Shown here piece after piece: positions 13,598-64,000 of a stretch of 64,000 nucleotides of DNA; the stretch's first letter is position 1; each line of letters begins with the position of its first letter. Below the pieces are notes generated by a model that was not told the origin of the DNA, searched no databases, and saw only the letters and a list, made by a program, of their open reading frames with translations. The stretch lies in the UHGV virus genome UHGV-0084588. The stretch is one strand, 5' to 3'. The translations under genes were made by a program, and so were the position numbers. The stretch comes from a virus.

Positions 13598-13825
13598 TTA
13601 GTCTTTTTTGTAGACAATCGCGTTACCGTGCAGTTTGTTGTTGCCGGAAATACCGATAACTTTGAATGCGTCGCCGCCAATTTTTTCGGCTTCAGCAGCC
13701 AGTTTACCAGTTACATGATCAACGGTATCGCCGAAAGCGCTGACGTTACCGATTTTCTTAAACTCTTCTGGAATATGCTCAGCAGAAGAGAACTCTTTAA
13801 TAGACATAACAGCTCTCCATTTCAA
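13598..13825 (-). CDS. DUF1471 (YdgH/BhsA/McbA family) domain protein, no signal peptide
   Basis: 75 aa; KKIGNVSAFGDTVDHVTGKLAAEAEKIGGDAFKVIGISGNNKLHGNAIVYK matches the BhsA-type domain (recalled E. coli BhsA: ...GTISANAG...LAQKADEMGAKSFRITSVTGPNTLHGTAVIYK). GGAG RBS before the ATG; no N-terminal hydrophobic leader. Confidence 0.6.
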   Translation of the reverse strand: MKWRAVMSIKEFSSAEHIPEEFKKIGNVSAFGDTVDHVTGKLAAEAEKIGGDAFKVIGISGNNKLHGNAIVYKKD

Positions 13826-14013: not shown

Positions 14014-14979
14014 TTATTGCGGAGGTGATGTCGGGCCATGTTTACCTTGGTGAATGTGAACGCTAAAGGTAATACCAGAAATAACGGCATCTTTAACCGT
14101 AAAGACACCGACGCCTTTGCCAGTACCGCCGTATTTGAAGTTCTTAGCGATTTCCAGATTACCGGTGAACATCGCTTCATTCCCTTCTTGTTTAAAGTTC
14201 GGCGTTTTAAATGTTGTCGAACTCCCTGCTTCCGTTAACCAGGTTTGTGTTTTAAACGTAACGGATTTCGCTGCTTCCGTATTGCGAACTTCGCATTTTT
14301 CATTAATTGTTTTCGTTTCCAGGTTAATAGAACGCTTTGAATAAATGAACGCATCTTCTTTGTTGATGTTCACTTTTGAAAGCATCGCATTCTCAAAACC
14401 TAAATCGTCTTCCACCGAGTTAATGTAATACTTATTCCCTTTGTGGTCAACACACTGCCACGTGCCATTTGCATTATCAAACTGAAATAACCACGCCGCT
14501 TTCTCGCCGTTCACCATACTTGTTCTTAGCGTGATATGTTTGTCAATCGTCGAGATATTCAACACATACGCATTGGACAGGTCATCCGCCATCTGGTTTT
14601 CAGGGTCAGCAGACCACGCGTAAACCGCATCCTCTAATCGCTTAACGTTAGCGAAGTTCAGATCAATCCAAAAATAAATATCGGTTTTCCCCAAACGTAA
14701 CAAGATAACGTAATCTTCTCGTTTAACGTCAGGGGAATTAATTCGGTTGGAGTTAAACTTCCACCACTTTGCTGTTATCGTGTTACCCGTCTTAATGGTT
14801 AGGTTATCTGTTGCACCAGACGTTTCATGCGTCTTTTCAGTTGCTGAAGAAACAGATTGCACCACGGTAGGGTTAGCAAAGTTGGTTTCAATTGGTATCA
14901 CTTTTACCCGATCTGTACCACGGGGTTTGTCTTCCGCGACGATACCAATTGAGAAAAAATCAACACTGGATTTCTCCAT
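14014..14979 (-). CDS. Hypothetical protein (321 aa), possibly virion-associated
   Basis: Track ORF; Thr/Asn/Lys-rich, beta-rich-looking composition; Gly-rich C-terminus (GGTGKGVGVF); no enzymatic motif. Confidence 0.5.
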   Translation of the reverse strand: MEKSSVDFFSIGIVAEDKPRGTDRVKVIPIETNFANPTVVQSVSSATEKTHETSGATDNLTIKTGNTITAKWWKFNSNRINSPDVKREDYVILLRLGKTDIYFWIDLNFANVKRLEDAVYAWSADPENQMADDLSNAYVLNISTIDKHITLRTSMVNGEKAAWLFQFDNANGTWQCVDHKGNKYYINSVEDDLGFENAMLSKVNINKEDAFIYSKRSINLETKTINEKCEVRNTEAAKSVTFKTQTWLTEAGSSTTFKTPNFKQEGNEAMFTGNLEIAKNFKYGGTGKGVGVFTVKDAVISGITFSVHIHQGKHGPTSPPQ

Positions 14980-15008
14980 CGGGACGTTCCTTAGATCGGA
15001 ATTGAATT

Positions 15009-15030
15009 CAGATATATATTACTTAAGTGA
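15009..15030 (+). promoter_or_regulatory. Promoter-like motif CAGATATATATTACTTAAGTGA
   Basis: 21 of 22 positions identical to the motif at 19359..19380 (24-nt TTCAGATATATATTACTTA(A/G)GTGA block shared); heads a 420-bp region without ORFs. Confidence 0.4.
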
Positions 15031-15286
15031 ATAGGGACTGAAGTACCAGTTCAGTCCCTACGGACACGTTTCATTCGAAACGGATTGATTAAACCATTTG
15101 GGGAGACAGATCATGTCTACTAAAAAAAGAAAGTCTCAATGAGCTGCTCAAACGTCTTAAAGACTACACTCCATTTAGTACCTTCCGATAACAGGTACTA
15201 AAATTTTACAGTCTGCCCCTTTATTCTGCTACTCGGGATACCGGTAGGGGGTAGGGGGCATTATGTATACGGATATAAATAGCGGA

Positions 15287-15398: not shown

Positions 15399-16136
15399 AT
15401 GAGAGAATTATTAGACGATATCTTTACTAACACCAGTTTAGAACTTTCTTCTACCGTTGTTAACGAACTATTAAAACAATCGCAACCTGCTAAGTTAATC
15501 GATGCTGGAACAATTAAACCTGAAGATTATCCAGACAGTGACGTTATCGACTGTATGATTGACGAATACGTGATAGGCAGTTACGCCAACCGCGTCTTCT
15601 TCGTTATTAATACCGAAACCAGTGTCATGTTAATCTATAAGTTGATCAGTGATGCCGAACTTGAAGTTGTGGCTGACCACATTCGTCTTCTTGCGAACAC
15701 GCCTACTAGTATCGATGATGTGCTTATTGGGAACGGTTGGGCTTTACCACCACTATTCTCTTACTTCCCTCTGTTTAGAAATGGGATAGGGTTACTCCGA
15801 AATGCAGAAAAGCTTCCCGATAACGTCGAGTTATCACTGCTTGGACCCGGCATCGATCTTTGTCCATTAGAAGACGAGGGCACGCTATATGGTTTGCGCA
15901 TCTATGTTTCTGTGTTAAAGGGTTACCGCGTTATTGAACTGATTGCATCCGACTTAGCAAAACAGATCCCAGATGTGGAAACGATTTCTAAAGCCACCCA
16001 CCTGGTTGAGATTAACTCAGACGATCCCTTATTGAAATATCACGAGAAAATTGATCTTCGTAAAATCGCCACGATGAGAGGGTGGAGTTGTGCTGAGATT
16101 ACGAAGGACTATCTGCTGTTAATTAAAACCGCGTAA
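15399..16136 (+). CDS. Hypothetical protein, member of tandem paralog family (C-terminal GW motif)
   Basis: 245 aa; C-terminus ...RGWSCAEITKDYLLLIKTA resembles the C-termini of the next three genes. Confidence 0.5.
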   Translation: MRELLDDIFTNTSLELSSTVVNELLKQSQPAKLIDAGTIKPEDYPDSDVIDCMIDEYVIGSYANRVFFVINTETSVMLIYKLISDAELEVVADHIRLLANTPTSIDDVLIGNGWALPPLFSYFPLFRNGIGLLRNAEKLPDNVELSLLGPGIDLCPLEDEGTLYGLRIYVSVLKGYRVIELIASDLAKQIPDVETISKATHLVEINSDDPLLKYHEKIDLRKIATMRGWSCAEITKDYLLLIKTA

Positions 16137-19303: not shown

Positions 19304-19336
19304 GGTGGGGGTAAACCCCCACCTTTTATTTTTTGT
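19304..19336 (+). terminator. Intrinsic terminator
   Basis: GGTGGGGG-TAAA-CCCCCACC followed by TTTTATTTTTTG. Confidence 0.7.
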
Positions 19337-19358
19337 TCGTCAACATTAAAAATAATTT

Positions 19359-19380
19359 CAGATATATATTACTTAGGTGA
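19359..19380 (+). promoter_or_regulatory. Promoter-like motif CAGATATATATTACTTAGGTGA
   Basis: Directly after terminator 19304..19336 and about 50 nt upstream of the first secreted-protein gene. Confidence 0.45.
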
Positions 19381-19429
19381 GAGTTATGATTAACTCATTT
19401 ATACATTAACGCCTTAAAGGAGCAAAACA

Positions 19430-19891
19430 ATGAAATTTTTTACTTCCTTTTTAACCATCCTCTTAACGCTGGGTCTCAATACTGCACACGCAGCAATCAA
19501 TAGCTGGGAACAAATCCAGTCTCCAGACCAAGCCATCTACGAAATCGAAGACACTGAAGGCAACAGCCTCTCTATCAATTGCAGTACAGAAACCGCCAAT
19601 CGTAAATTTTACGGGCACAATGTTTGGTATTACGGAGAACCTGCAGGGGCAACAAACGCTGAGGATAACGCGCTCGATATTGTCGTAAATGGTAAAAAAT
19701 ACCGTATCCCTACCATCGACGGTAGCGACCGTTCAGAACAAGCCTGGGCGGATTTCATTAAAGCGGTCGGTGGGGCAAACCATTTTAGCTTGCTTATTAA
19801 CGATAACGTGGCAGCAGGGTTTACCGTAGAAGGCGAACGCCTTAACGAAACGTTTTTCCAGAACTGTGGACACAGCCGTCCTAACAAATAA
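19430..19891 (+). CDS. Secreted/periplasmic small protein (signal peptide)
   Basis: 153 aa; N-terminus MKFFTSFLTILLTLGLNTAHA is a classic Sec signal ending AHA; Cys present; AAAGGAG RBS; preceded by terminator plus promoter-like motif. Confidence 0.55.
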   Translation: MKFFTSFLTILLTLGLNTAHAAINSWEQIQSPDQAIYEIEDTEGNSLSINCSTETANRKFYGHNVWYYGEPAGATNAEDNALDIVVNGKKYRIPTIDGSDRSEQAWADFIKAVGGANHFSLLINDNVAAGFTVEGERLNETFFQNCGHSRPNK

Positions 19892-19913
19892 ATATTAATC
19901 TTTTTTAGAGTGC

Positions 19914-20306
19914 GTGAAAATGAATATCAGAACTATACTTTATACTATCATTATTTTCTGTGCGGTCGGAATTACTGGCACTTATGCTTTCGGTGATTCG
20001 GATGTCCGCTATTACGAACCGGCTCCTGACTCACCCATTATCAACCCGGATGAGTCCCCTACGTTAATGCGCAGTTTCGGTAAACTGCAAGTTTATCGTT
20101 TAGTGCGTGGTGAAACGTGTACGGGATTACTCATTGCTGACACCCGTGCACAAGTCTACCAACGTCTAACCGATATTGCTTGCGAACAACCGAAAGTAAT
20201 GTCAGTTAGTATCCATCCGCTATCAGTTGGTAACTATACCGCTGTGGACTTCTTTCATAACGCCGAATTAATTGGCCGTGTTACTTTAAATCGTCCTGCT
20301 GAATAA
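19914..20306 (+). CDS. Secreted or membrane-anchored small protein
   Basis: 130 aa; hydrophobic N-terminus ILYTIIIFCAVGITGTYA; GTG at 19914 or ATG at 19920. Confidence 0.5.
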   Translation: MKMNIRTILYTIIIFCAVGITGTYAFGDSDVRYYEPAPDSPIINPDESPTLMRSFGKLQVYRLVRGETCTGLLIADTRAQVYQRLTDIACEQPKVMSVSIHPLSVGNYTAVDFFHNAELIGRVTLNRPAE

Positions 20307-20324
20307 TCTAAAGGAGTAGTTGCA

Positions 20325-20810
20325 ATGAAACGTTTACATACGCTGATGTTCTTTCTGGTTTTCTTGTTTATCGGTGCCACACCAACTGTAGATGCGGCCT
20401 CCGTAGACGAATTACTTACCTGTGATGGAAACGCTTGGGAAGGTCAGCCAAATGCGTGCCCGAACATCAACGACTTGTACGATACCGATAAGTCATTTAA
20501 AGCTGTTGTTGATAAAACACTAGACCCGGTGGGACTGGATGGTATGTTCGGCTCTAAAGGTTACATGGATGGTCCTGGCGGTAACATGTATCCGGTAAAC
20601 ATCAACAACAAAATCTGGATTGAAAGTGGTGGTTGTAAAGCTAATGCTTGTGGCTGGGAATACATCGTAACGCTATACAACCCACACACCAAGAAACTCG
20701 TCGGTTATTACTACAACATCGACCCCGGTTATCTGATTTGGTTCGGTGATATCGGTGTTGCTGAATTCGCTTACCTGGTTAAGAAATACGCGGAACAATC
20801 TAAATACTAA
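20325..20810 (+). CDS. Secreted protein with Ivy-like CKxxxCG motif (possible periplasmic lysozyme-inhibitor fold)
   Basis: 161 aa; signal peptide MKRLHTLMFFLVFLFIGATPTVDA; ESGGCKANACGWEYIVT resembles the Ivy loop region (recalled E. coli Ivy: SACKPHDCGSQRIAV), but the loop His is not conserved. Confidence 0.5.
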   Translation: MKRLHTLMFFLVFLFIGATPTVDAASVDELLTCDGNAWEGQPNACPNINDLYDTDKSFKAVVDKTLDPVGLDGMFGSKGYMDGPGGNMYPVNINNKIWIESGGCKANACGWEYIVTLYNPHTKKLVGYYYNIDPGYLIWFGDIGVAEFAYLVKKYAEQSKY

Positions 20811-20821
20811 GGACTTTTATC

Positions 20822-21232
20822 ATGAAAACTATCATCAACACTCTTCTCATTGCAATTGCTATTCTGTTCTCTGTTAACGTATCAGCAAAAACAATACAGT
20901 TGCCAGACGGTATTAAGTACGTCAATAGCACCGACGATTTCTACTGTACGGAAATTGACGGTCTGTACTGCCAGGCGAAGAACCTGTTTAAATACAAAGG
21001 TAGCAGATACGTGTTCATCGTTGAGCAAGGTGGTGCCTGGTGCTACGACAGCCCAATGTCTGTACTCAACCTCGAAACGTGGAAGGCACAACGTCTTGAA
21101 TACAACGACAAACATTTGTGCTCAGGCAACAACAAACCATTCTTCAAAGTCGTAGATGGTGTACCGATGGTAGGGATATTAGACACTTCGGAAAAACCTA
21201 TCGTTGTAGCTATGGATAAACTTAAAATTTAA
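20822..21232 (+). CDS. Secreted small protein (signal peptide, 6 Cys)
   Basis: 136 aa; MKTIINTLLIAIAILFSVNVSA signal peptide. Confidence 0.5.
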   Translation: MKTIINTLLIAIAILFSVNVSAKTIQLPDGIKYVNSTDDFYCTEIDGLYCQAKNLFKYKGSRYVFIVEQGGAWCYDSPMSVLNLETWKAQRLEYNDKHLCSGNNKPFFKVVDGVPMVGILDTSEKPIVVAMDKLKI

Positions 21233-21242
21233 GGAGTAACTC

Positions 21243-21632
21243 ATGCGTCTCATCTGCGCTTTAGCATTCTTCTTCTCCCTGGGTGTAGCGGCATCTACTC
21301 AAGTTAACGATTTACTGCTAACCCCAAACAACAATACCGATTACCAGTACAATCCTCCGGGGTTTGAAGTTTGTGAAGTCGGTGAAACAATCTGCCAAGA
21401 AGTCGGCGCAGACGGGCGCTATATTCTGGTAAAAGCTGATGGTGGCACAATGTGTCCCGCAGGTTATTACTTTCTTCTCGATTCCGTTGCAAGAGAGGTT
21501 CTTCCTATCACCACGAAAACGTGCGACCCTACTGTTGTCTTAACTCTCGCTAAAAGCAAATCTCGCGACCGTTATCTGATCGTTATCGAAGAACGGGGCA
21601 AGATGGCTGGCGCTATCGAATTAGATCATTGA
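21243..21632 (+). CDS. Secreted small protein (signal peptide, Cys-rich)
   Basis: 129 aa; MRLICALAFFFSLGVAAS signal; AAGGAG RBS; followed by terminator 21643..21670. Confidence 0.5.
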   Translation: MRLICALAFFFSLGVAASTQVNDLLLTPNNNTDYQYNPPGFEVCEVGETICQEVGADGRYILVKADGGTMCPAGYYFLLDSVAREVLPITTKTCDPTVVLTLAKSKSRDRYLIVIEERGKMAGAIELDH

Positions 21633-21642
21633 GTGTAGTCTT

Positions 21643-21670
21643 GGCCCCGGAATGTCCGGGGTCCTTTTTT
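21643..21670 (+). terminator. Intrinsic terminator
   Basis: CCCCGG-AATGT-CCGGGG followed by TCCTTTTTT. Confidence 0.65.
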
Positions 21671-27604: not shown

Positions 27605-27688
27605 ACACAACAAAGGAGTATTAGCTGTCCGCGCCGTCATTTCGTCTTACGGAATACGGAAATGTATAAATCCAACTGGAGAAACAAA

Positions 27689-28387
27689 ATGTTTCGTATC
27701 TTCTTTCTTTTACTGGTAACACTTTTCGCGTTTAACGCACAGGCGTCAACGTCAACGCCGCAAACTAAACATCAGCGTGAATTTACACAAATCCAACATC
27801 GGTTCGAAAAGGTCAGTCCGTTAATTGTGGAAATCTCACGAAAGCAAGGCGTTGATCCTAAGCTGATGATTACGCTGATTTATCGCGAATCGCGTTTTGA
27901 TCCCAAGGCTTACAACAAAAGCACACGAGCGCACAGCCTAGTACAGATGCTTCCAAGTACCAAGCGCAATCTGCTAAAGCTTTATGGAAAAGAATTAGGT
28001 CTTAGTCAGAACGCTGATTTGTATAATCCGCGTAACGCTGTTTTGCTGGCTACCGCGTATGTTAAACATCTTGAGAAGGGGTTAACCAAACGACTCAAAC
28101 GCAAGCCCACCATGGCTGAAGTTGCGTTAGCTTACCACTGGGGTGAAAGTGGCGCTCACACGCGAATCAAAAGCAAATCTCGAGCAGCACAACGAGAAAT
28201 GGCAGGCTTTATGAAAGACGCCGCGTTCTATAGCGCGAAAATCGATGTGCCTGTTGTTGTGGGCTCGGCCCCACGTCAGCTTGCGTTTGCGAAGAAAACA
28301 CCACGTCAGATTCAATTGGCGGAAGTTAGTAAAATTTGGGATACGATAAACACGAGTTTTCCAATCAATAGAGGAGTTACCCTTTGA
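27689..28387 (+). CDS. Secreted lytic transglycosylase (SLT domain), candidate endolysin
   Basis: Signal peptide MFRIFFLLLVTLFAFNAQA; SLT catalytic region LIYRESRFDPKAYNKSTRAHSLVQMLPST (E-S ... S ... A ... LxQ pattern). Alternative upstream ATG at 27662. Confidence 0.6.
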   Translation: MFRIFFLLLVTLFAFNAQASTSTPQTKHQREFTQIQHRFEKVSPLIVEISRKQGVDPKLMITLIYRESRFDPKAYNKSTRAHSLVQMLPSTKRNLLKLYGKELGLSQNADLYNPRNAVLLATAYVKHLEKGLTKRLKRKPTMAEVALAYHWGESGAHTRIKSKSRAAQREMAGFMKDAAFYSAKIDVPVVVGSAPRQLAFAKKTPRQIQLAEVSKIWDTINTSFPINRGVTL

Positions 28388-33606: not shown

Positions 33607-33609
33607 TTG

Positions 33610-34065
33610 ATGAAAATGCTATTATTCATCATGGTAGTGTTCGTGGGGTTGGTGAGTAATAGCTACGGTGACGAAGTTGAACGTCCAGCTTATAGGCCAC
33701 TGGAGCTTCCTCCTGAACCACCAATAATGGTGAATTGGAAAATTGACAAGAATGCAATGCGTGAGTATGTTGCAGATGTCAACACCTATGCTTATTACGT
33801 TTATGTCTACACACGAAATTTAAACCAGCAAGCCGCTAAACGTGGCTGGAGTCCACCAATGTTGGCTCCACTTTGTGAACGCTATGAGTTACCGAAATTA
33901 CACGTTGTACCTGAGCGCTTGTCTCTTGATGAGGGTTCTTTAACAGCCCAAGAGATTAGCCGTGATTTATCGCGTAAACTCAATAATTTGTTGTGGAATT
34001 ACCGTTCCGACCGTCAGGCACTGCTCGATTCGTATAACCAATACTTGACATCGTGTTTGTACTGA
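33610..34065 (+). CDS. Secreted protein (signal peptide, no lipobox)
   Basis: ATG at 33610 after AAGGAG (track start 33607 is TTG); MKMLLFIMVVFVGLVSNSYG signal; PPEPP motif; terminator follows. Confidence 0.45.
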   Translation: MKMLLFIMVVFVGLVSNSYGDEVERPAYRPLELPPEPPIMVNWKIDKNAMREYVADVNTYAYYVYVYTRNLNQQAAKRGWSPPMLAPLCERYELPKLHVVPERLSLDEGSLTAQEISRDLSRKLNNLLWNYRSDRQALLDSYNQYLTSCLY

Positions 34066-58131: not shown

Positions 58132-61100
58132 TTACGCCGATTTACGACTAACGTCGAGTTGTGGCGCTGGTTGGGTTATTGACACGTTACGTGACGCCGA
58201 ACCCGGAGCGGTTGACGCAGGGTTAGCCGGTCCGTTTTGCATAGCCTGTGGTCGCTGACGAAGAATTGTTACAATCTCTTTCAGGTAGCCCGCAGACTCT
58301 TTTGCAACCGCCAGCTGCTGTACGCTGATCGGATCACCGCTGTTCACTGTAGAGCCGGTCTGTGCATCGGACGTTACTGTTGGTGCAGGGCGGACTGATT
58401 TCTCCATCTGCTGTCTAGCACCTTCTTTTACTTTAGCAACATCCTCTTCGGCCAGGCCGTCAGCACGAGCGTTTTGACCCACCGTATCTACAACAACTGA
58501 CGCATCACTCGGTGTAACGTCGCCGCCAGGGCTCGGCACAGCCGGACCACCGCCCGTCGCAGCTTTAATGTCATCGGCCCCCATTGCACCTTTATCTGCT
58601 AAGGCTGCATCACGATTCGCCTCGTTCGCAGCTGGCAGGTTATCTGCCGGGCCTGTGATAGACGGATCGTTAGCAGCGCCCGCAGCGATGGCTGGGGATG
58701 ACGGCATTGGCGTTACGCCTGTCGTCAAGTCTTTCACCGATGCCTGATTAGCCGCAATTGCGTTTGTTCCTACTGCACCAATCTTACCACCCATGATGTT
58801 GAGCACTTCATCCAAACTACGCAATTTTCCATTCTTGTAGAAAATTGTGCTGTTTGCCGCGATTTGATCGGCCGATGCACCACGCGATGACGGACCGTTC
58901 GGATCACGCTTCCATTCTTGCAGGAATTTCTTACCGCCACCTTGTCCTAAGAAGTGGTAGAGGTAAACTGCTGCACCAGGAGGATCGATGCCACCTAAAT
59001 CCTTTCTGGCTTTCTCGATATTGTCACGAATATGGCGGACACCAAGCAGAGTATTCGCCCACGGGTCATACTGGTCGGTTTGCGGGATACCGTAACGTCT
59101 AGCGTAAGCTTTCATCTGCGCACCCCAGGTATCGTTGATGAACTGGAACAAGCCAGCCGCAGAACTTCCTTTAGCTTTGATGCCGTATCTAAGTCCTGAT
59201 TCTGCTTGTGCCATTCCCAGAGCTAACGCTGGGGGAACACCCATCATCTTCGCTACATCTGTAATCAGTGCCGCAACCGCATTCAGGTTAGGCTTCAATC
59301 CGTCGCCCAACGTTGAAATTGGATACTTAGCCGCTAACGTTTTATAATCACCGTCTTGCATCTCGCCAAGCTTCACACCGAAGTTACCGGTACTAAACGC
59401 GGCGTAATTCTTAGCTCCCATCTGACCATAAGCACCAGCCAAATCGTTTGGCGTGCCGTAATTCCCACCGTCATTCGCTGCCGGTTGAAGCAGATCGCGA
59501 TAAGAGGAGGAAGTATTCATCTGTTGCCGAGGTGGTTGGTCCTTCTCGTCATCGGTCAAGAACATCTGAGTCGCACGATCTTTTCGCTGCCAGTTCACAC
59601 GGAAACCAGCAGAAGGCGTAGCACGCAGCGTTTTACGTACTGCCAAATCAGCTTCCTTAGACAGTTCTTTCAGATTCTCTAACTCCGTCGCAACTGAACC
59701 AGCGTCAGTGTTAGCATCACCCCCTAACGGGTTAAACGGTACCTCCCACACCGATTGGCGAATACCCCCTTTCAGGTTGTATGCACCACGCATCATCAGT
59801 GCGATTTCATACAAGAACCCGCCTGTAACGCGTAGGTCCATCGGATCGGCAGCAGGGACATAACGTTTCACTCCAACCACGTACGTCATGAAGACAGGTA
59901 AGAAGCGGTTATAGAACCAGTTCTTGTACCGATCTTCTTTTGGCCCACCAATAGCGTCAGGTGCAATCACCGCAATCGCACGTTTCCAGTCTCCTTTATA
60001 CGTACAACTTTTCACATCAGTGTCTTGCAACACTTGACGTTCTAGGAGCGTATAGAGGTTACGGGTTGTTTGAGTAATGCTCACAGCACCATAAGCTTTC
60101 AACCTTACAGATTCCAAATCACGGAGATCGGTTTCTTTAGGTAAGCTTCTCCAGTCAACTTGAACCTGAACTTGTTCGGTGCCGTCTTCCCAACCTTCAA
60201 CCTTTGCAACCTCTTTGTTGCGTTCCGCATCCGCTTGAGCCAACGCTTGGGACGATTCCGCCACAGAAGCAACTTTGTGTCCTTCGGCCACGCCGCCTGT
60301 AGCATTAACATCCTTACGTTTTTCATCACGACGCATGTTAATCGAACGAAGCACGCGTTCTTGTGCTTCAACGACTTCTTCACCTGACAAAAACTCGGCC
60401 GGGGTAAACGTTACGAAATCCCACGCTTTAGAGAACCAACCTTGGTTAACCTTGCGGGGGTCTTCTAATGCACGGAATGCAGGTGCGTCTTTCGACATCT
60501 TCATTTTGTTAAAGATGTTCAACATGTCTGCTTTCGACACTTTCGCTGGATTACCGACGTCAGCTAACGCGATATCGTTATCCATCGATTTCAGTGCCGT
60601 AATCCAACGTAAGTAAATAGGCACAAAACGTTGTAGCATAAACGCACTAAACGCCAGCATTTCGCCTTTGTCTTCTACGTTAGTACCAAACCCTTCGGCC
60701 AGTTTCTTCACGTCGTCACCGGACAAACCACGCAGCTGCGCTTGACCGTTCTCTGTATAAGAGATATACGGTTTCAAGTTGTCTTCTAAATAACGTGCTT
60801 TTGCACCGTCGTCGGAAGACCATTCATCGTGGTCTCTAAAACCGTACTGCGCCAATCGCATGTTATCCAGATACTGGGCATTTACACGGGTTGCAGTTTT
60901 ATACGCAAACCAAGACAGCGCAGCGCCTGCAGCGACCAAGCCAATAATCGGCCAGCCAACCGCAGTTACCACTGCAGATGCCGCTGTCGCGACAGCACTC
61001 ACCGCAGGGACAGCCAAACGGGTCACAGCAAACTTACCAACGTTCCACAACGCTTTGCCTGCAAATCCAACCGGCTTGAAGATTCCCCATTTTGCAACTT

Positions 61101-64000
61101 TACCTAAGATTGAACCCACTGTGCCCAAAATACTCACAATCGGTCCTACCAACGGCAGTCCTTTAAGGAAATCCATTACCCCACGTTTACCACCTTTCTT
61201 CTCAGCCTCTTTCTTAGCCTTTTCCTCTTCCTTAGAACGACGACGGCGTCGGAAGAACTGGAAGTAATCGCGTTTTTCATCACTGGCAGGCGGCTTATTG
61301 CGTTGGCCGAACTTACTGAACATAGTTCTTAACAAACCATCCGAAGCACCTGCTTTTTCCGCAGAATCACGCATGGTGTTAAACCATGACATTTCCTGAA
61401 GATTAACCATTCGGTTCAGGCGTTCCAGTAAAGCTGACCCAACGCTACGGGCTTTCTGTTTCCCTTTATTAATCACACGACCAGCGCTATCCATTACGGT
61501 GTCTAAGTCTTCTTTTGCCGCATCGACGATACGTGTTTTAGACACCTTGCCTCTTGCGTAGATGTGTTGACGGTAAAACTCAGCAACATCGTCATCGCGT
61601 CCTGCTAAACGACTCTCCATTCGATAACGTGTGCCAATATCGAAACGTGGATCACGGAAAGTATCGACCATATCGCTTGCACGACCACGGAAACGATCAA
61701 ACCAACCACGTGCGGCACCGCCCCAACGAGAAAGACGATCGCCTACCGCACCGCGATAACGGGACATTCTGTCACGCATCCGACCACGCCAATCCCGGAA
61801 CCCCTGAAAATGTTCACGGAACCCTTCACGTATGTCTTTAGCACGTTGGAATAATCCTTTAACTGAGCTGGCTCCCGTATTCCGTTCCATCTGTTCTGTC
61901 CAGGTATCATCTTCTGGTTCACCTGGCAATCTCCGGTTAAGGAGTTTGTAGATACGGATTAAGATGTGGTTAGTTTTACGGCCGTTCGACCATGAGAACA
62001 CACTAAACCCACCACCAGAACCCCCTTCCTTACGGTTCTGCCACCAACGTGTCAGAGGGTTATCAGAAGCCAACTCTTTGAGCTTCTCAAACCCGCGTTT
62101 TGCATTGTTCCACAAACGTGCTGGCATTCCCGTTACACGGGAAATCATGCTTTGTAAACGGGTTTTCTCTGCGCCCTCTGGAACCTCATTTAACCACTCA
62201 CGTGCTTTCTCGAACAACGAAGCCGCTTTAGGTGAAATGAAGCCTAAAAGTTTCTTCGGTAAAGTCACAGCTTTGTTTACCGCCGTTCCTGCTTTCCCAG
62301 AAATGTACTGGAAAAGCGCTTGAACTTTACCGCCTTTGTAGAATCGCAGTTTACCTGCGGCAGCCAAATCAGCAGCAGATAAGATTAAATTACCCGCTTC
62401 ATCGACAATATCACGTCCCAGTTTAATATCGTCGAGGGTTTTAAGTTGAATCAGCTTCTCAGTTTTCGGGTCAGCCTGGTAATATTCCCCAGCTTCTAAA
62501 CGACTTCCTTGTAATACGACGTTGCCACGTTCATCGTAAATATCACGAACACCTAAAACGCCTTTACCGAAAGCTACAGCAGAATTCCAACCTGTCGATA
62601 GAGTACCTGTTACTAACCCTTTCAGTCGGCTAAATACACCGGGTCCTTCGGAGGAGCCGCCTGAGAATTTCCCACGGATAAAACCACCTAAAGCCTGCAG
62701 ACGATCTTTCCCACGTAGGAACAGATTCTTACCAAAACGCCCTACACCTGAACCGGTATCCCAAAGCACCCCAGCCCAACGGCGTAACAAGCCTGTCTCG
62801 CCTAGCACAATACGTTTGCGTTTACGACGACGTTTACGACCCGAGTCACTCGAACTTTCAGTTTCGTCACCGTCATCACGACTACCGCCTAAACTGGCTA
62901 GGAGAATACCTTCCTCATCCATGTTCTTAACGTGTTTGAGGATATCTTGCACTGTGCTAGATTCGGGCTGTTTACGTACAGCATCAATCAAACGGTCGAA
63001 TTGCTGTTCCAACCCGGCGTTCGTATCTGGACGACTGCTTAATAGTTCAACAAAGTTAGTGGATTTCTCTCCATAAAGTACCGCAGCGAGTTGACGTGCG
63101 CTTAAACCGCGACCACGACCACCTTTTCCACCGCCACGCACATTGGACAGTTCTTTGTCTTCAAAGCTCGGCTCTGCACCTGCACCCATCCGACGCAAGT
63201 AATCACCCAGCGCAGAACCGTTTTGCAATTTACGCTGAATCTCTTGCTCACGGGTTAACGAACGTCCAGAGCGGGTCTTACCCATCGACAGGTCATTAAA
63301 TAACGTATAGGGATCGTTAATGTCCTTATCGACCTCGAAAATGTCTTTCTTCGCATCGTATTTAAAAATACCGGAATCACGAAGTGCATTCTCGCCGTAA
63401 ATCACAGACGCAGCATCAACAGTGTCCTGACGTGCGCGAATCGTTGACTGGATAGCGGCGATTTTGTTTGAAATCGCGTTGCTCAATTCATGGTGTCCAC
63501 CAACCAGTTCCGCAGAACGGGCTTCTAAAACACCCTGAATCGCTTCCACAGCGTTTGCGTTCATGTACCGATACATGTGCATCGGGTCTTTCAATAAAGA
63601 CCCTACATCGAACGCTTTCCCTTCCGAGGCACGGGATTCGATGTAGTCTGCTAACGCCTGACGTGTTTTCCGATCGAGCGTTTTATCTTTATCGATAAAG
63701 TCGACTGTATCGTTGATGTAAGTCTGTAAACGTTTACGCTGATCGTCATTAGCAACCGCTTTACGAACACGATTACCAATAACTTTACGATCCACCATAC
63801 CGCGTGTGGTCAGGTCATAAACCTGATCGTGGTGTTCACCATATCCACGACGAATAGATTTGTTAATCTCGGACAGTAACGTCGGAATAACTTCAGTGAT
63901 GCTGAGGTAAGCTTTACGATCGAATTTCGCCGCCGCAGAAAGAGATTCCGCAGAGCGATCGTCTAATGCTAACGTTTCGCGACGTAGCGGGTTAACCAAT
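58132..64000 (-). CDS. Giant virion-associated protein with TM segments and lytic transglycosylase (SLT) domain, N-terminus beyond window (>=1955 aa)
   Basis: Frame stays open to the window end (the track M is a TTG codon). Hydrophobic block LPLVGPIVSILGTVGSILG...AVSAVATAASAVVTAVGWPIIGLVAAGAALSWF; SLT motif MGVPPALALGMAQAESGLRYGIKAKGSSAAGLFQF near the C-terminus; Arg/Gly-rich repeats. Confidence 0.65.
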   Translation of the reverse strand, partial: LVNPLRRETLALDDRSAESLSAAAKFDRKAYLSITEVIPTLLSEINKSIRRGYGEHHDQVYDLTTRGMVDRKVIGNRVRKAVANDDQRKRLQTYINDTVDFIDKDKTLDRKTRQALADYIESRASEGKAFDVGSLLKDPMHMYRYMNANAVEAIQGVLEARSAELVGGHHELSNAISNKIAAIQSTIRARQDTVDAASVIYGENALRDSGIFKYDAKKDIFEVDKDINDPYTLFNDLSMGKTRSGRSLTREQEIQRKLQNGSALGDYLRRMGAGAEPSFEDKELSNVRGGGKGGRGRGLSARQLAAVLYGEKSTNFVELLSSRPDTNAGLEQQFDRLIDAVRKQPESSTVQDILKHVKNMDEEGILLASLGGSRDDGDETESSSDSGRKRRRKRKRIVLGETGLLRRWAGVLWDTGSGVGRFGKNLFLRGKDRLQALGGFIRGKFSGGSSEGPGVFSRLKGLVTGTLSTGWNSAVAFGKGVLGVRDIYDERGNVVLQGSRLEAGEYYQADPKTEKLIQLKTLDDIKLGRDIVDEAGNLILSAADLAAAGKLRFYKGGKVQALFQYISGKAGTAVNKAVTLPKKLLGFISPKAASLFEKAREWLNEVPEGAEKTRLQSMISRVTGMPARLWNNAKRGFEKLKELASDNPLTRWWQNRKEGGSGGGFSVFSWSNGRKTNHILIRIYKLLNRRLPGEPEDDTWTEQMERNTGASSVKGLFQRAKDIREGFREHFQGFRDWRGRMRDRMSRYRGAVGDRLSRWGGAARGWFDRFRGRASDMVDTFRDPRFDIGTRYRMESRLAGRDDDVAEFYRQHIYARGKVSKTRIVDAAKEDLDTVMDSAGRVINKGKQKARSVGSALLERLNRMVNLQEMSWFNTMRDSAEKAGASDGLLRTMFSKFGQRNKPPASDEKRDYFQFFRRRRRSKEEEKAKKEAEKKGGKRGVMDFLKGLPLVGPIVSILGTVGSILGKVAKWGIFKPVGFAGKALWNVGKFAVTRLAVPAVSAVATAASAVVTAVGWPIIGLVAAGAALSWFAYKTATRVNAQYLDNMRLAQYGFRDHDEWSSDDGAKARYLEDNLKPYISYTENGQAQLRGLSGDDVKKLAEGFGTNVEDKGEMLAFSAFMLQRFVPIYLRWITALKSMDNDIALADVGNPAKVSKADMLNIFNKMKMSKDAPAFRALEDPRKVNQGWFSKAWDFVTFTPAEFLSGEEVVEAQERVLRSINMRRDEKRKDVNATGGVAEGHKVASVAESSQALAQADAERNKEVAKVEGWEDGTEQVQVQVDWRSLPKETDLRDLESVRLKAYGAVSITQTTRNLYTLLERQVLQDTDVKSCTYKGDWKRAIAVIAPDAIGGPKEDRYKNWFYNRFLPVFMTYVVGVKRYVPAADPMDLRVTGGFLYEIALMMRGAYNLKGGIRQSVWEVPFNPLGGDANTDAGSVATELENLKELSKEADLAVRKTLRATPSAGFRVNWQRKDRATQMFLTDDEKDQPPRQQMNTSSSYRDLLQPAANDGGNYGTPNDLAGAYGQMGAKNYAAFSTGNFGVKLGEMQDGDYKTLAAKYPISTLGDGLKPNLNAVAALITDVAKMMGVPPALALGMAQAESGLRYGIKAKGSSAAGLFQFINDTWGAQMKAYARRYGIPQTDQYDPWANTLLGVRHIRDNIEKARKDLGGIDPPGAAVYLYHFLGQGGGKKFLQEWKRDPNGPSSRGASADQIAANSTIFYKNGKLRSLDEVLNIMGGKIGAVGTNAIAANQASVKDLTTGVTPMPSSPAIAAGAANDPSITGPADNLPAANEANRDAALADKGAMGADDIKAATGGGPAVPSPGGDVTPSDASVVVDTVGQNARADGLAEEDVAKVKEGARQQMEKSVRPAPTVTSDAQTGSTVNSGDPISVQQLAVAKESAGYLKEIVTILRQRPQAMQNGPANPASTAPGSASRNVSITQPAPQLDVSRKSA

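Follow-up and report, generated by a model that had tools for sequence, protein, structure and literature searches.

The window analysed here is a stretch of 64,000 nucleotides (nt) from the virus genome UHGV-0084588, and our subject is a run of five small genes within it, p1 to p5, the third of which encodes a divergent homolog of the lysozyme inhibitor Ivy (Table 1). A preliminary description, made from the letters of the window, had placed five adjacent genes of 129 to 161 amino acids (aa) at 19430-21632, and all five are plus-strand open reading frames (ORFs) at those positions. They are separated by gaps of 10 to 28 nt, and AGGAG-type ribosome-binding sites precede four of the five (p1, p3, p4, and p5). 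Translation of p2 from a GTG gives 130 aa, and from the ATG at 19920, as in relatives, 128 aa. The terminators that the same description had drawn around the cluster correspond to the two strongest terminator-like hairpins in the region. In each of the five N termini, a positively charged n-region is followed by a hydrophobic core free of charges and by a cleavage site of the AxA type, predicted in gene order as AHA/A, TYA/F, VDA/A, VSA/K, and VAA/S. These calls were made with a crude home-made heuristic and not with SignalP; it marked 7 of the 64 candidate genes in the window, five of which are p1 to p5 in direct succession, and a run of five or more has an exact probability of P = 1.6e-4. 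The clustering of signal-peptide genes is non-random. Cysteines number 2, 2, 4, 4, and 4 in the predicted mature parts, every count being even, which fits the expectation for disulfide-bonded periplasmic proteins. The earlier account of Sec-type signal peptides and cysteines in all five proteins agrees with their N-terminal features and composition.

Table 1. Features of the gene cluster, its flanking signals, and other genes of the window (positions in the 64,000-nt stretch)
Feature	Position	Strand	Description
p1 gene	19430-19891	+	153 aa; predicted exported YfjT-family protein (PF27224); signal peptide aa 1-21; 2 Cys in mature part
p2 gene	19914-20306	+	128-130 aa; predicted exported or membrane-anchored; conserved phage family phrog_9424; 2 invariant Cys
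p3 gene	20325-20810	+	161 aa; divergent Ivy-family homolog; predicted signal peptide aa 1-24 (nt 20325-20396); Cys33/Cys45 pair; loop Cys104-K-A-N-A-Cys109
Codons for putative inhibitory loop CKANAC (Cys104-Cys109) of p3	20634-20651	+	In register with Ivy CKPHDC; Asn107 in place of His
p4 gene	20822-21232	+	136 aa; predicted exported 4-Cys protein, p4/p5/gp085 phage superfamily (phrog_8968)
p5 gene	21243-21632	+	129 aa; predicted exported 4-Cys protein; most conserved member of the p4/p5/gp085 superfamily (phrog_5248)
Terminator-like hairpin 5' of p1	19304-19323, with T-run to 19333	+	8-bp stem, 7 G-C, 4-nt loop, then TTTTATTTTT; ends the upstream transcription unit
Terminator-like hairpin 3' of p5	21643-21663, with T-run to 21672	+	9-bp stem, 7 G-C, 3-nt loop, then CTTTTTTACG; ends the five-gene unit
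Giant-phage (virion RNA polymerase, early-type) promoter-like element	19345-19386	+	Core TTCAGATATATATTACTTAGGTGAGAG at 19357-19383
TATATATTAC within the promoter-like element upstream of p1	19363-19372		
Second early-type promoter copy, TTCAGATATATATTACTTAAGTGA	15006-15031	+	Near-identical, 24 nt; in the divergent intergenic region between 14014-14979 (-) and 15399-16136 (+)
SLT lytic-transglycosylase protein	27662-28387	+	241 aa; PF01464 E 4.6e-15; signal-peptide-like N terminus MYKSNWRNKMFRIFFLLLVTLFAFNAQA/S
Giant SLT protein	58132-63999	-	>1955 aa, ORF runs off the window end; SLT at aa 1580-1666, PF01464 E 1.9e-7; resembles phiKZ-type tail lysins
ORF, seventh signal-peptide-like gene	33607-34065	+	152 aa; N terminus MKMLLFIMVVFVGLVSNSYG, then Pro-rich stretch; no Pfam match
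Small ORF, DUF1471 / YdgH-BhsA-like	13598-13825	-	Corresponds to a gene annotated in relatives (such as 'multiple stress resistance protein BhsA' in Stratton); apparently without signal peptide (MSIKEFSSAEHIPEEF...)

By itself, p3 gave no Pfam match at E <= 1, no PHROG match, and no tblastn match among 50,697 phage records. It matched the NCBIfam model NF007443 ('Ivy family C-type lysozyme inhibitor') at E 0.0013, with 18.6 bits against an equivalog cutoff of 180, and alone falls below the curated Ivy-family thresholds of both PF08816 and NF007443. A search of 5.8e9 proteins returned one phage copy at 97% identity and E. coli 'hypothetical proteins' at 54-74%, or about 59-65% among those that span nearly all of p3. 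The E. coli homologs P0002-P0012 (57-65% identity over the full length) have nearly the same signal peptide and the same four cysteines. When a profile of p3 and this E. coli clade alone (A1) was compared with 177,635 PDB sequences, E. coli Ivy (1GPQ, 1XS0) ranked second, with the loops in register, at E = 1.4. Against 1.8e9 representative proteins, A1 reached remote full-length relatives at E 9e-21 to 1e-4, among them proteins that individually exceed the PF08816 cutoff of 21 bits (P0044 with 37.7 and P0033 with 36.3). The profile broadened from A1 (A2, 23 members, of which 21 match PF08816) recovered all solved Ivy structures (1GPQ, 1XS0, 4PS6, and 1UUZ) at E 3e-13 to 5.5e-10. A non-circular comparison was made with hhalign between A1 and a separate profile (A7) of Pfam-passing Ivy proteins plus two PDB Ivy segments, 16 bona fide sequences in all, and aligned 147 columns at a probability of 99.75% and E 1.8e-27.

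The predicted structure of p3 is consistent with this homology. Its topology is alpha/beta with five strands, in the order helix-helix-strand-strand-[Cys-x4-Cys loop]-strand-strand-strand-helix, and the best structural match of the model (predicted local distance difference test score, pLDDT, 59) is Ivy; among viral structures, a Foldseek search of BFVD gave nothing at E <= 0.001. The third protein had been described beforehand as Ivy-like around a CKxxxCG loop devoid of the Ivy histidine, and a structure prediction of the 161-aa protein had been proposed as one test. Full-length homology and a matching predicted fold now extend that likeness well beyond the loop. We regard it as well supported, from sequence profiles and a structural model, that p3 is homologous to Ivy over its full length, with the same predicted topology and with a Cys-bridged loop whose register matches that of CKPHDC. 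Like the Ivy proteins (E. coli YkfE and P. aeruginosa Ivyp1/Ivyp2; PF08816; 1GPQ, 1XS0, 1UUZ, 4PS6), it combines a Sec signal peptide with an alpha/beta mature protein of ~130 aa. The predicted signal peptide, MKRLHTLMFFLVFLFIGATPTVDA/AS, has a positive n-region, an uncharged hydrophobic core, and an AxA site by the heuristic call, and A24 and A25 at its cleavage site are invariant across the p3 clade. An additional conserved N-terminal cysteine pair, C33/C45, sets p3 apart from Ivy and is common to many remote family members with a C...CPY motif. Ivy is also a core chromosomal gene, whereas p3 is phage-borne and its relatives lie on mobile islands.

The loop itself lies in the string ESGGCKANACGWEYIVT, which contains Cys104-Cys109. 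HMMER aligned C104-KANA-C109 of p3 with C-KPHD-C of 1GPQ and 1XS0, and both cysteines are invariant in A1, A2, and A7. As in Ivy, a Gly follows the loop; unlike Ivy, the p3 loop has Asn for His and is without the Pro or Asp. The Ivy loop His is central to lysozyme inhibition and engages catalytic residues, as seen in the structure of Ivy with hen egg-white lysozyme. It is invariant in all 16 bona fide sequences of A7, and Asn107 stands at the same place in p3. Within the p3 clade, the loop reads CKAHAC, CKANAC, CKSNAC, or CKANTC, the His being kept in the E. coli alleles P0002, P0004, and P0007 (CKAHAC). Both Cys pairs, the loop Lys, and a flanking GW motif are invariant across the clade. Because p3 falls below the curated thresholds and has Asn107 for the loop His, we count it among the divergent homologs of the Ivy family and do not call it a canonical Ivy. 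Three remote family members of about 280-316 aa (P0025, P0026, and P0067) join an N-terminal Ivy-like domain to a conserved Cys-rich C-terminal domain, with the loop CEAHNC or CEANNC in P0025 and P0026 and a degenerate motif in P0067; to our knowledge, this two-domain architecture has not been described before.

The genes around p3 fall outside the Ivy family. Single-linkage clustering of BLAST matches sorted the cluster genes of ten phages into four families. For p1, precomputed matches to PF27224 (YfjT) exist for its close homologs P0073-P0079 and for both paralogs in the related contig L009; the Pfam copy against which p1 itself was run lacks this model. By BLASTP, p1 is 27% identical to YfjT of E. 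coli K-12 (E 2e-15), and the second YfjT paralog of some relatives is 38% identical to it (E 1e-33). No tblastn match to p1 was found among deposited phages, and its match to phrog_3429 is weak. K-12 YfjT (b2637, cryptic prophage CP4-57) resembles p1 in size, signal peptide, and conserved cysteines; it is annotated 'uncharacterized protein,' and we found no functional study of it in the literature. The p2 protein matches phrog_9424 at E 1.4e-40, with orthologs in SPN3US, phiEaH2, Asesino, SPAsTU, Huxley, and Caitlin. The last two proteins are paralogous (BLASTP E 1.6e-4) and share one single-linkage cluster with SPN3US gp084, gp083, and gp085; p4 matches phrog_8968 at E 6.9e-32, and p5 matches phrog_5248 at E 5.7e-30, with matches in 55 phage records at 40-50% identity. 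The alignment of this p4/p5/gp085 superfamily (A4) has the shared pattern F-x-C...C...GGxxC...C.

Searches for other relationships among these proteins were negative. At E <= 1, the Pfam matches of p1 to p5 were noise only; PADLOC had no match for p1 to p5 or for E. coli P0002 at E <= 0.01; and no Pfam or structure match to the other lysozyme-inhibitor families (MliC/PliC, PliG, PliI) was found for p1, p2, p4, or p5. The profiles A4 and A5 (the p2 family alignment) had no credible PDB match, and the AlphaFold2 model of p5, all-beta and with a pLDDT of 53.5 too poor for use, had no significant fold match. Several likenesses were considered and rejected. The GGxxC motif gives p4, p5, and gp085 an Ivy-like look by eye, and hhalign of A4 with A2 aligned signal peptides only (probability 27%). 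A PHROG cross-hit suggested p2 as a p4/p5 paralog, and hhalign of A5 with A4 again aligned only the signal peptide, leaving p2 as a separate family. The A4 match to 'ThreeFoil' (3pg0, E 2e-7) is an artefact, since three identical repeats of ~10 bits each (E 3-6) were summed. A lipoprotein reading of p2 draws on LAAC in SPN3US gp086, but the corresponding residues are IIFC in the window and AVC or VVC elsewhere, with no consistent lipobox. By these sequence comparisons, p2 and the p4/p5 superfamily are unrelated to Ivy, and to each other beyond the signal peptide. The products of p1, p2, p4, and p5 are probably periplasmic binders or modulators as well.

The best explanation of the window as a whole is a virulent SPN3US-like (Chimalliviridae-type) enterobacterial jumbo phage, SPN3US being a member of the nucleus-forming Chimalliviridae (PMC10541120). 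At the DNA level, none of the deposited phages is a close match; 72-75% identity over a few genes is the most that was seen, with SPN3US-like phages of Salmonella and E. coli and with the Erwinia phages phiEaH2, Asesino, and Stratton. Closer relatives came from unannotated assemblies alone, namely a 225-kb IMG/VR contig (L018), whose p3 is 99% identical, and the Logan/ENA contigs L009, L011, and L012. Further close relatives are a 223-kb contig in a Salmonella assembly (L010) and L013, recorded as a circular 'plasmid' of 221,873 bp from a urinary isolate of E. coli, and in the cluster region the close relatives are about 76-89% identical to the window. The L013 sequence (NZ_CP173450.1, 'plasmid p98232-contig_4' of E. 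coli strain 98232) evidently represents the genome of a jumbo phage related to the window, syntenic and of ~76-86% nt identity here; its record as an E. coli plasmid suggests a carrier state, pseudolysogeny, or a co-sequenced phage. Its Ivy-like gene is labelled a pseudogene by PGAP.

Across the more distant phages, p2, p4, and p5 form a conserved core, ordered p2-[gp085]-p4-p5 in Seoulvirus and Erskinevirus and p2-p4-p5 in Machinavirus, with the same two genes and an SMC/SbcC-like gene downstream of the core in every case. SPN3US gp083-gp086 and their orthologs (PHROGs 5248, 8968, 17072, and 9424) are syntenic small exported Cys proteins behind the same promoter element, all annotated hypothetical. 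They differ from the present cluster in that a gp085-type paralog takes the place of the Ivy-like gene and a YfjT-like gene is missing. No expression or proteomic data for the SPN3US orthologs were found in the literature.

The promoter motif that had been reported upstream of the cluster is real and recurs in the window, its core TTCAGATATATATTACTTAGGTGA being found again at 15006-15031; its type is that of giant phages and not sigma-70. Over its 42 nt, the element is 100% identical to intergenic sites of phiEaH2 and Stratton and 84-89% identical to sites of SPN3US-like phages, and it is the only part of the cluster region that is conserved at the DNA level with deposited phages. In SPN3US, L012, and L013 it stands 64-91 nt 5' of the orthologous cluster, L009 has it with one substitution, and in phiEaH2, SPAsTU, and Huxley it precedes a slightly longer unit. 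Predicted promoter consensus sequences have been published for 201phi2-1 (...TTTRARR_BTATATTACDWHDGTG) and phiKZ (TATATTAC) (PMC7058600), and the early virion RNA polymerase promoters of giant phage AR9 have been mapped experimentally as AAATATATATTAT-(6N)-G (PMC5312081). The element fits the first two and the AR9 early architecture. A sigma-70 promoter for the cluster was rejected, since sigma-70-like sites were no more frequent in the region than expected by chance. From this similarity, we infer that the injected virion RNA polymerase transcribes the operon early.

The cluster is a mosaic of the conserved phage core p2/p4/p5 and two island-related genes, the YfjT-like p1 and the Ivy-like p3. 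The preliminary description had taken the five genes as one unit; as a tight operon between terminators this stands, but the genes do not form one family or one evolutionary unit, the other four being unrelated to Ivy. In E. coli, the Ivy-like gene is found in CP4-type integrative islands, with a dynamin-like GTPase/YjcZ/patatin module and a 180-aa secreted protein on one side and DUF932-KlcA-RadC-DUF987-CbeA on the other. CP4-57 has the same architecture, so that yfjT, like the Ivy-like gene, belongs to a CP4-type island, whereas p1 is phage-borne. By blastn, the Ivy-like gene is present in 2,324 of 5,426 complete E. coli genomes (about 43%), always as a 'hypothetical protein.' The jumbo-phage alleles form two groups. 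Group A (the window, L018, and L009; loop CKANAC) is a deep branch with at most about 72% nt identity to any E. coli allele, and the window allele is in this respect a separate lineage without a close bacterial counterpart. Group B (L012, L013, L019, and L020; loop CKSNAC) is 95.7% identical in nt to chromosomal alleles over the full gene. Between the window and L012, identity is 74% for p1, 96% for p2, 77% for p4, and 81% for p5, and the Ivy-like proteins are 66% identical.

Further rearrangement is seen in L010, which has a chimera in the p3 slot (L010:7427-7879, GCA_008966875.1) made of a 24-residue Ivy-type signal peptide, MKRLHALMFILAFLSIGIIPESNA, and an SPN3US gp085-like mature domain. 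The chimera is evidence that cassettes are swapped at the level of domains while the signal peptide in front of them is kept. In the same contig p4 is missing and p2 was called truncated, and L009 has two YfjT copies, so genes are both gained and lost at the locus. Given the two allele lineages, the divergence from L012, and the L010 chimera, the p3 slot is a recombination hot spot that exchanges with host islands. Its distribution favors transfer from island to phage: E. coli has the gene widely and in diverse forms, and no other sequenced SPN3US-like phage has it. GC content (44.0% in p3, 45.1% in the window, and 46.6% in the E. coli allele) and GC3 were tried as pointers to direction and are uninformative.

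Variation was also observed among the island copies. Among E. coli variants (P0013 and P0014; P0009, P0011, and P0012), some fuse the Ivy-like C-terminal part to fragments of the upstream dynamin-like or YjcZ genes, which implies island deletions. Others, of 223-227 aa, are read-through products from a truncated copy of the upstream gene for the 180-aa secreted protein, and these forms may explain the 'two-domain' description of the E. coli protein Hypo_04657 in a preprint that is taken up below. The 180-aa protein (L001:7098-7640), encoded directly upstream of the island gene, has a signal peptide, MKFIVKALIYLAVMLSFTANA, several cysteines, and no family assignment. It stands beside the Ivy-like gene in every island examined, and the two may be a functional pair.

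The features of the locus are best explained by a single promoter-to-terminator operon that would send five small proteins through Sec to the periplasm; joined to an inhibitory role for p3, this picture has in our judgment an even chance of being right. In the proposed mechanism, p3 would be cut after VDA24 following Sec export and oxidised to Cys33-Cys45 and Cys104-Cys109 disulfides. Its loop would then be inserted, as that of Ivy is, in the active-site cleft of a glycosidase that cleaves peptidoglycan, either a lysozyme or a lytic transglycosylase, with His or Asn at loop position 4 tuning target specificity. In its most likely biological role, p3 would thereby shield the wall of the infected cell from the entry lysins of superinfecting or competing phages. 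By analogy with known inhibitors, we put equal weight on p3 being, and not being, an early periplasmic inhibitor of peptidoglycan-cleaving enzymes. That its purpose would be the exclusion of other phages, or wall protection, is one part of this estimate and is held somewhat less firmly than the whole.

The working model for this role is T4 Spackle (gp61.3), an early, periplasmic, disulfide-bearing protein whose inhibition of the tail lysozyme gp5 brings about the exclusion of superinfecting phages (PMC7677548). In Spackle, an early product with a cleaved periplasmic signal blocks a virion peptidoglycan hydrolase; the early-type promoter-like element and predicted signal peptide of p3 would be in keeping with such a role. 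The likeness is functional only. Spackle is a 75-aa alpha-helical bundle that acts allosterically, whereas Ivy-type inhibitors place a loop in the active site (PMC7677548); p3 is predicted to be alpha/beta with five strands and has no PHROG or Pfam match to Spackle. Ivy proteins are potent inhibitors of C-type lysozymes, and Ivy is part of the Rcs envelope-stress response; in vitro, P. aeruginosa Ivyp1 and Ivyp2 also inhibit the lytic transglycosylase MltB (PMC10139938).

An effect on phage has been described for a protein of this kind. In the PHAGEPACK preprint, CRISPR interference (CRISPRi) knockdown of Hypo_04657 in E. coli O121 led to more T7 plaques; this protein, Ivy-like and with a CKANTC loop, can be superimposed on 1XS0, and the authors proposed inhibition of a phage lysozyme (bioRxiv 10.1101/2024.04.20.590424). 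CKANTC is likewise the loop of the E. coli p3 homologs P0011 and P0012 and of IMG/VR prophage loci, and Hypo_04657 probably belongs among the island proteins of the P0002-P0012 type. The N-terminal domain of T7 gp16 is a lytic transglycosylase and is used during entry. To an inhibitor in the periplasm, gp16 would be a more natural target than T7 lysozyme, which is cytoplasmic. Together with the SLT-type lysins encoded in the window, the T7 result lends indirect support to the roles that the preliminary description had suggested, namely superinfection exclusion, inhibition of incoming peptidoglycan hydrolases, or control of lysis timing. On a wider and more tentative view, the island and phage Ivy-like clade may be an unrecognised class of periplasmic phage-exclusion factors directed against virion entry lysins such as T7 gp16 and the tail SLT of jumbo phages. 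The variable loop would then set which phages are blocked, jumbo phages would repeatedly capture E. coli defence-island alleles into an early periplasmic operon, and the YfjT-like and 4-Cys neighbors would be further effectors.

Several points weigh against an inhibitory, phage-excluding p3. With the loop His replaced by Asn, inhibition may be lost or retargeted, and in vitro E. coli Ivy itself has only a weak inhibitory effect on MltA and MltB (PMC10139938). The p3 model is of low confidence, the export of all five proteins is predicted by a simple heuristic, and the early timing of the operon is read from promoter similarity. Most relatives, including SPN3US and phiEaH2, lack p3, which is therefore accessory. 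The T7 phenotype belongs to a bacterial gene and not to the phage p3; the link between Hypo_04657 and the island proteins is the shared loop and Ivy-like fold, the preprint is not peer-reviewed, and polar effects of CRISPRi are possible.

The strongest of the alternatives, if an improbable one, is that p3, possibly with the other exported proteins, serves lysis timing by restraining the phage's own SLT endolysin or host autolysins until lysis. The 241-aa SLT protein of the window has a strong SLT domain and a signal-peptide-like N terminus and is conserved in SPN3US, phiEaH2, Huxley, and others, where it is annotated as a putative endolysin or (lytic) transglycosylase. It would be an exported or signal-anchor-release (SAR)-type endolysin and a candidate partner or target of p3, since lytic transglycosylases are inhibited by Ivy proteins in vitro (PMC10139938). 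These phages, however, keep this endolysin without an Ivy-like gene, so p3 is not its required partner, and close relatives differ at the p3 slot by exchanged alleles and even exchanged whole domains, which is not what a co-adapted pair of enzyme and inhibitor would show. Early expression, to which the class of the promoter points, also speaks against a role at lysis. A second SLT protein, the giant one at the end of the window, is probably a virion tail lysin, presumably analogous to phiKZ gp181. With two SLT proteins in the window, self-exclusion and lysis control are both conceivable.

Slightly less probable is a p3 without inhibitor activity, in which the Ivy scaffold was reused for envelope binding or receptor masking, or the gene is a near-neutral hitch-hiker in a cluster that is a permissive insertion site. 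The loss of the loop His, the absence of p3 from most relatives, the different mature domain in the L010 slot, the two YfjT copies in L009, and the loss of p4 from L010 would all suit such a site. Against this, the Cys pairs, loop Lys, and GW motif are invariant in the clade, and the gene is intact in at least seven jumbo-phage contigs (two allele lineages) and in ~43% of E. coli genomes; the invariant loop features and wide retention argue for selection on a loop-dependent function.

An unlikely reading of much the same standing, and marginally weaker, gives p3 the canonical Ivy role, guarding the infected cell against animal C-type lysozyme or dampening host autolysis during a long gut cycle, with no other phages involved. 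It draws on the family homology, on the potency of Ivy against C-type lysozymes (PMC10139938), and on the origin of relatives of the phage in enteric E. coli and Salmonella samples. The exchange of the invariant loop His for Asn and the score of 18.6 against 180 bits at the Ivy equivalog cutoff count against it, as does the canonical Ivy that E. coli already encodes. The clade moreover lies in mobile islands beside defence-type genes, and a homolog-like gene affects T7 plaquing. We consider it most improbable that the five proteins target the vesicle of early phage infection (EPI), which is thought to be inner-membrane-derived and topologically periplasmic, so as to act on the compartment of the injected genome: the operon does have an early-type promoter, but the idea is pure topology-based speculation, two EPI-related papers do not mention signal-peptide or Sec-dependent cargo, an Ivy-fold protein has an obvious periplasmic target class, and the island homologs work in uninfected cells.

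Two other genes of the window deserve mention. The seventh signal-peptide-like gene, with its Pro-rich stretch, could encode a spanin-like or other envelope protein, and a small ORF corresponds to the DUF1471 / YdgH-BhsA-like gene of relatives (Table 1).

The Ivy family is already known, and the Ivy-like E. coli island protein was noticed in the preprint cited above (bioRxiv 10.1101/2024.04.20.590424). Ivy-like genes have also gone unrecognised in some viral genomes: family members match phrog_13619, of 'unknown function,' with E values down to 3e-12, and p3 itself had no match to it at E <= 0.01. What appears to be new is an Ivy-family gene in a nucleus-forming jumbo phage, set in a conserved early operon of exported proteins, together with loop variants that lack the His, evidence that alleles have repeatedly been exchanged with E. 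coli islands, and a YfjT-family gene alongside from the same kind of island. If the proposed role of p3 is true, it would be a second, evolutionarily independent superinfection exclusion of the Spackle type, built on the Ivy fold, and it would give a function to a 'hypothetical protein' encoded in about 43% of the complete genomes of E. coli. Genes would then also be seen to pass between the defence islands of bacteria and nucleus-forming jumbo phages at one specific early operon. In phage therapy, such genes could decide the outcome when jumbo phages are combined with others in cocktails. The finding further bears on the old question of the real purpose of Ivy-type inhibitors, which are periplasmic and normally shielded from animal lysozyme, and this points to phage lysins as their natural targets.

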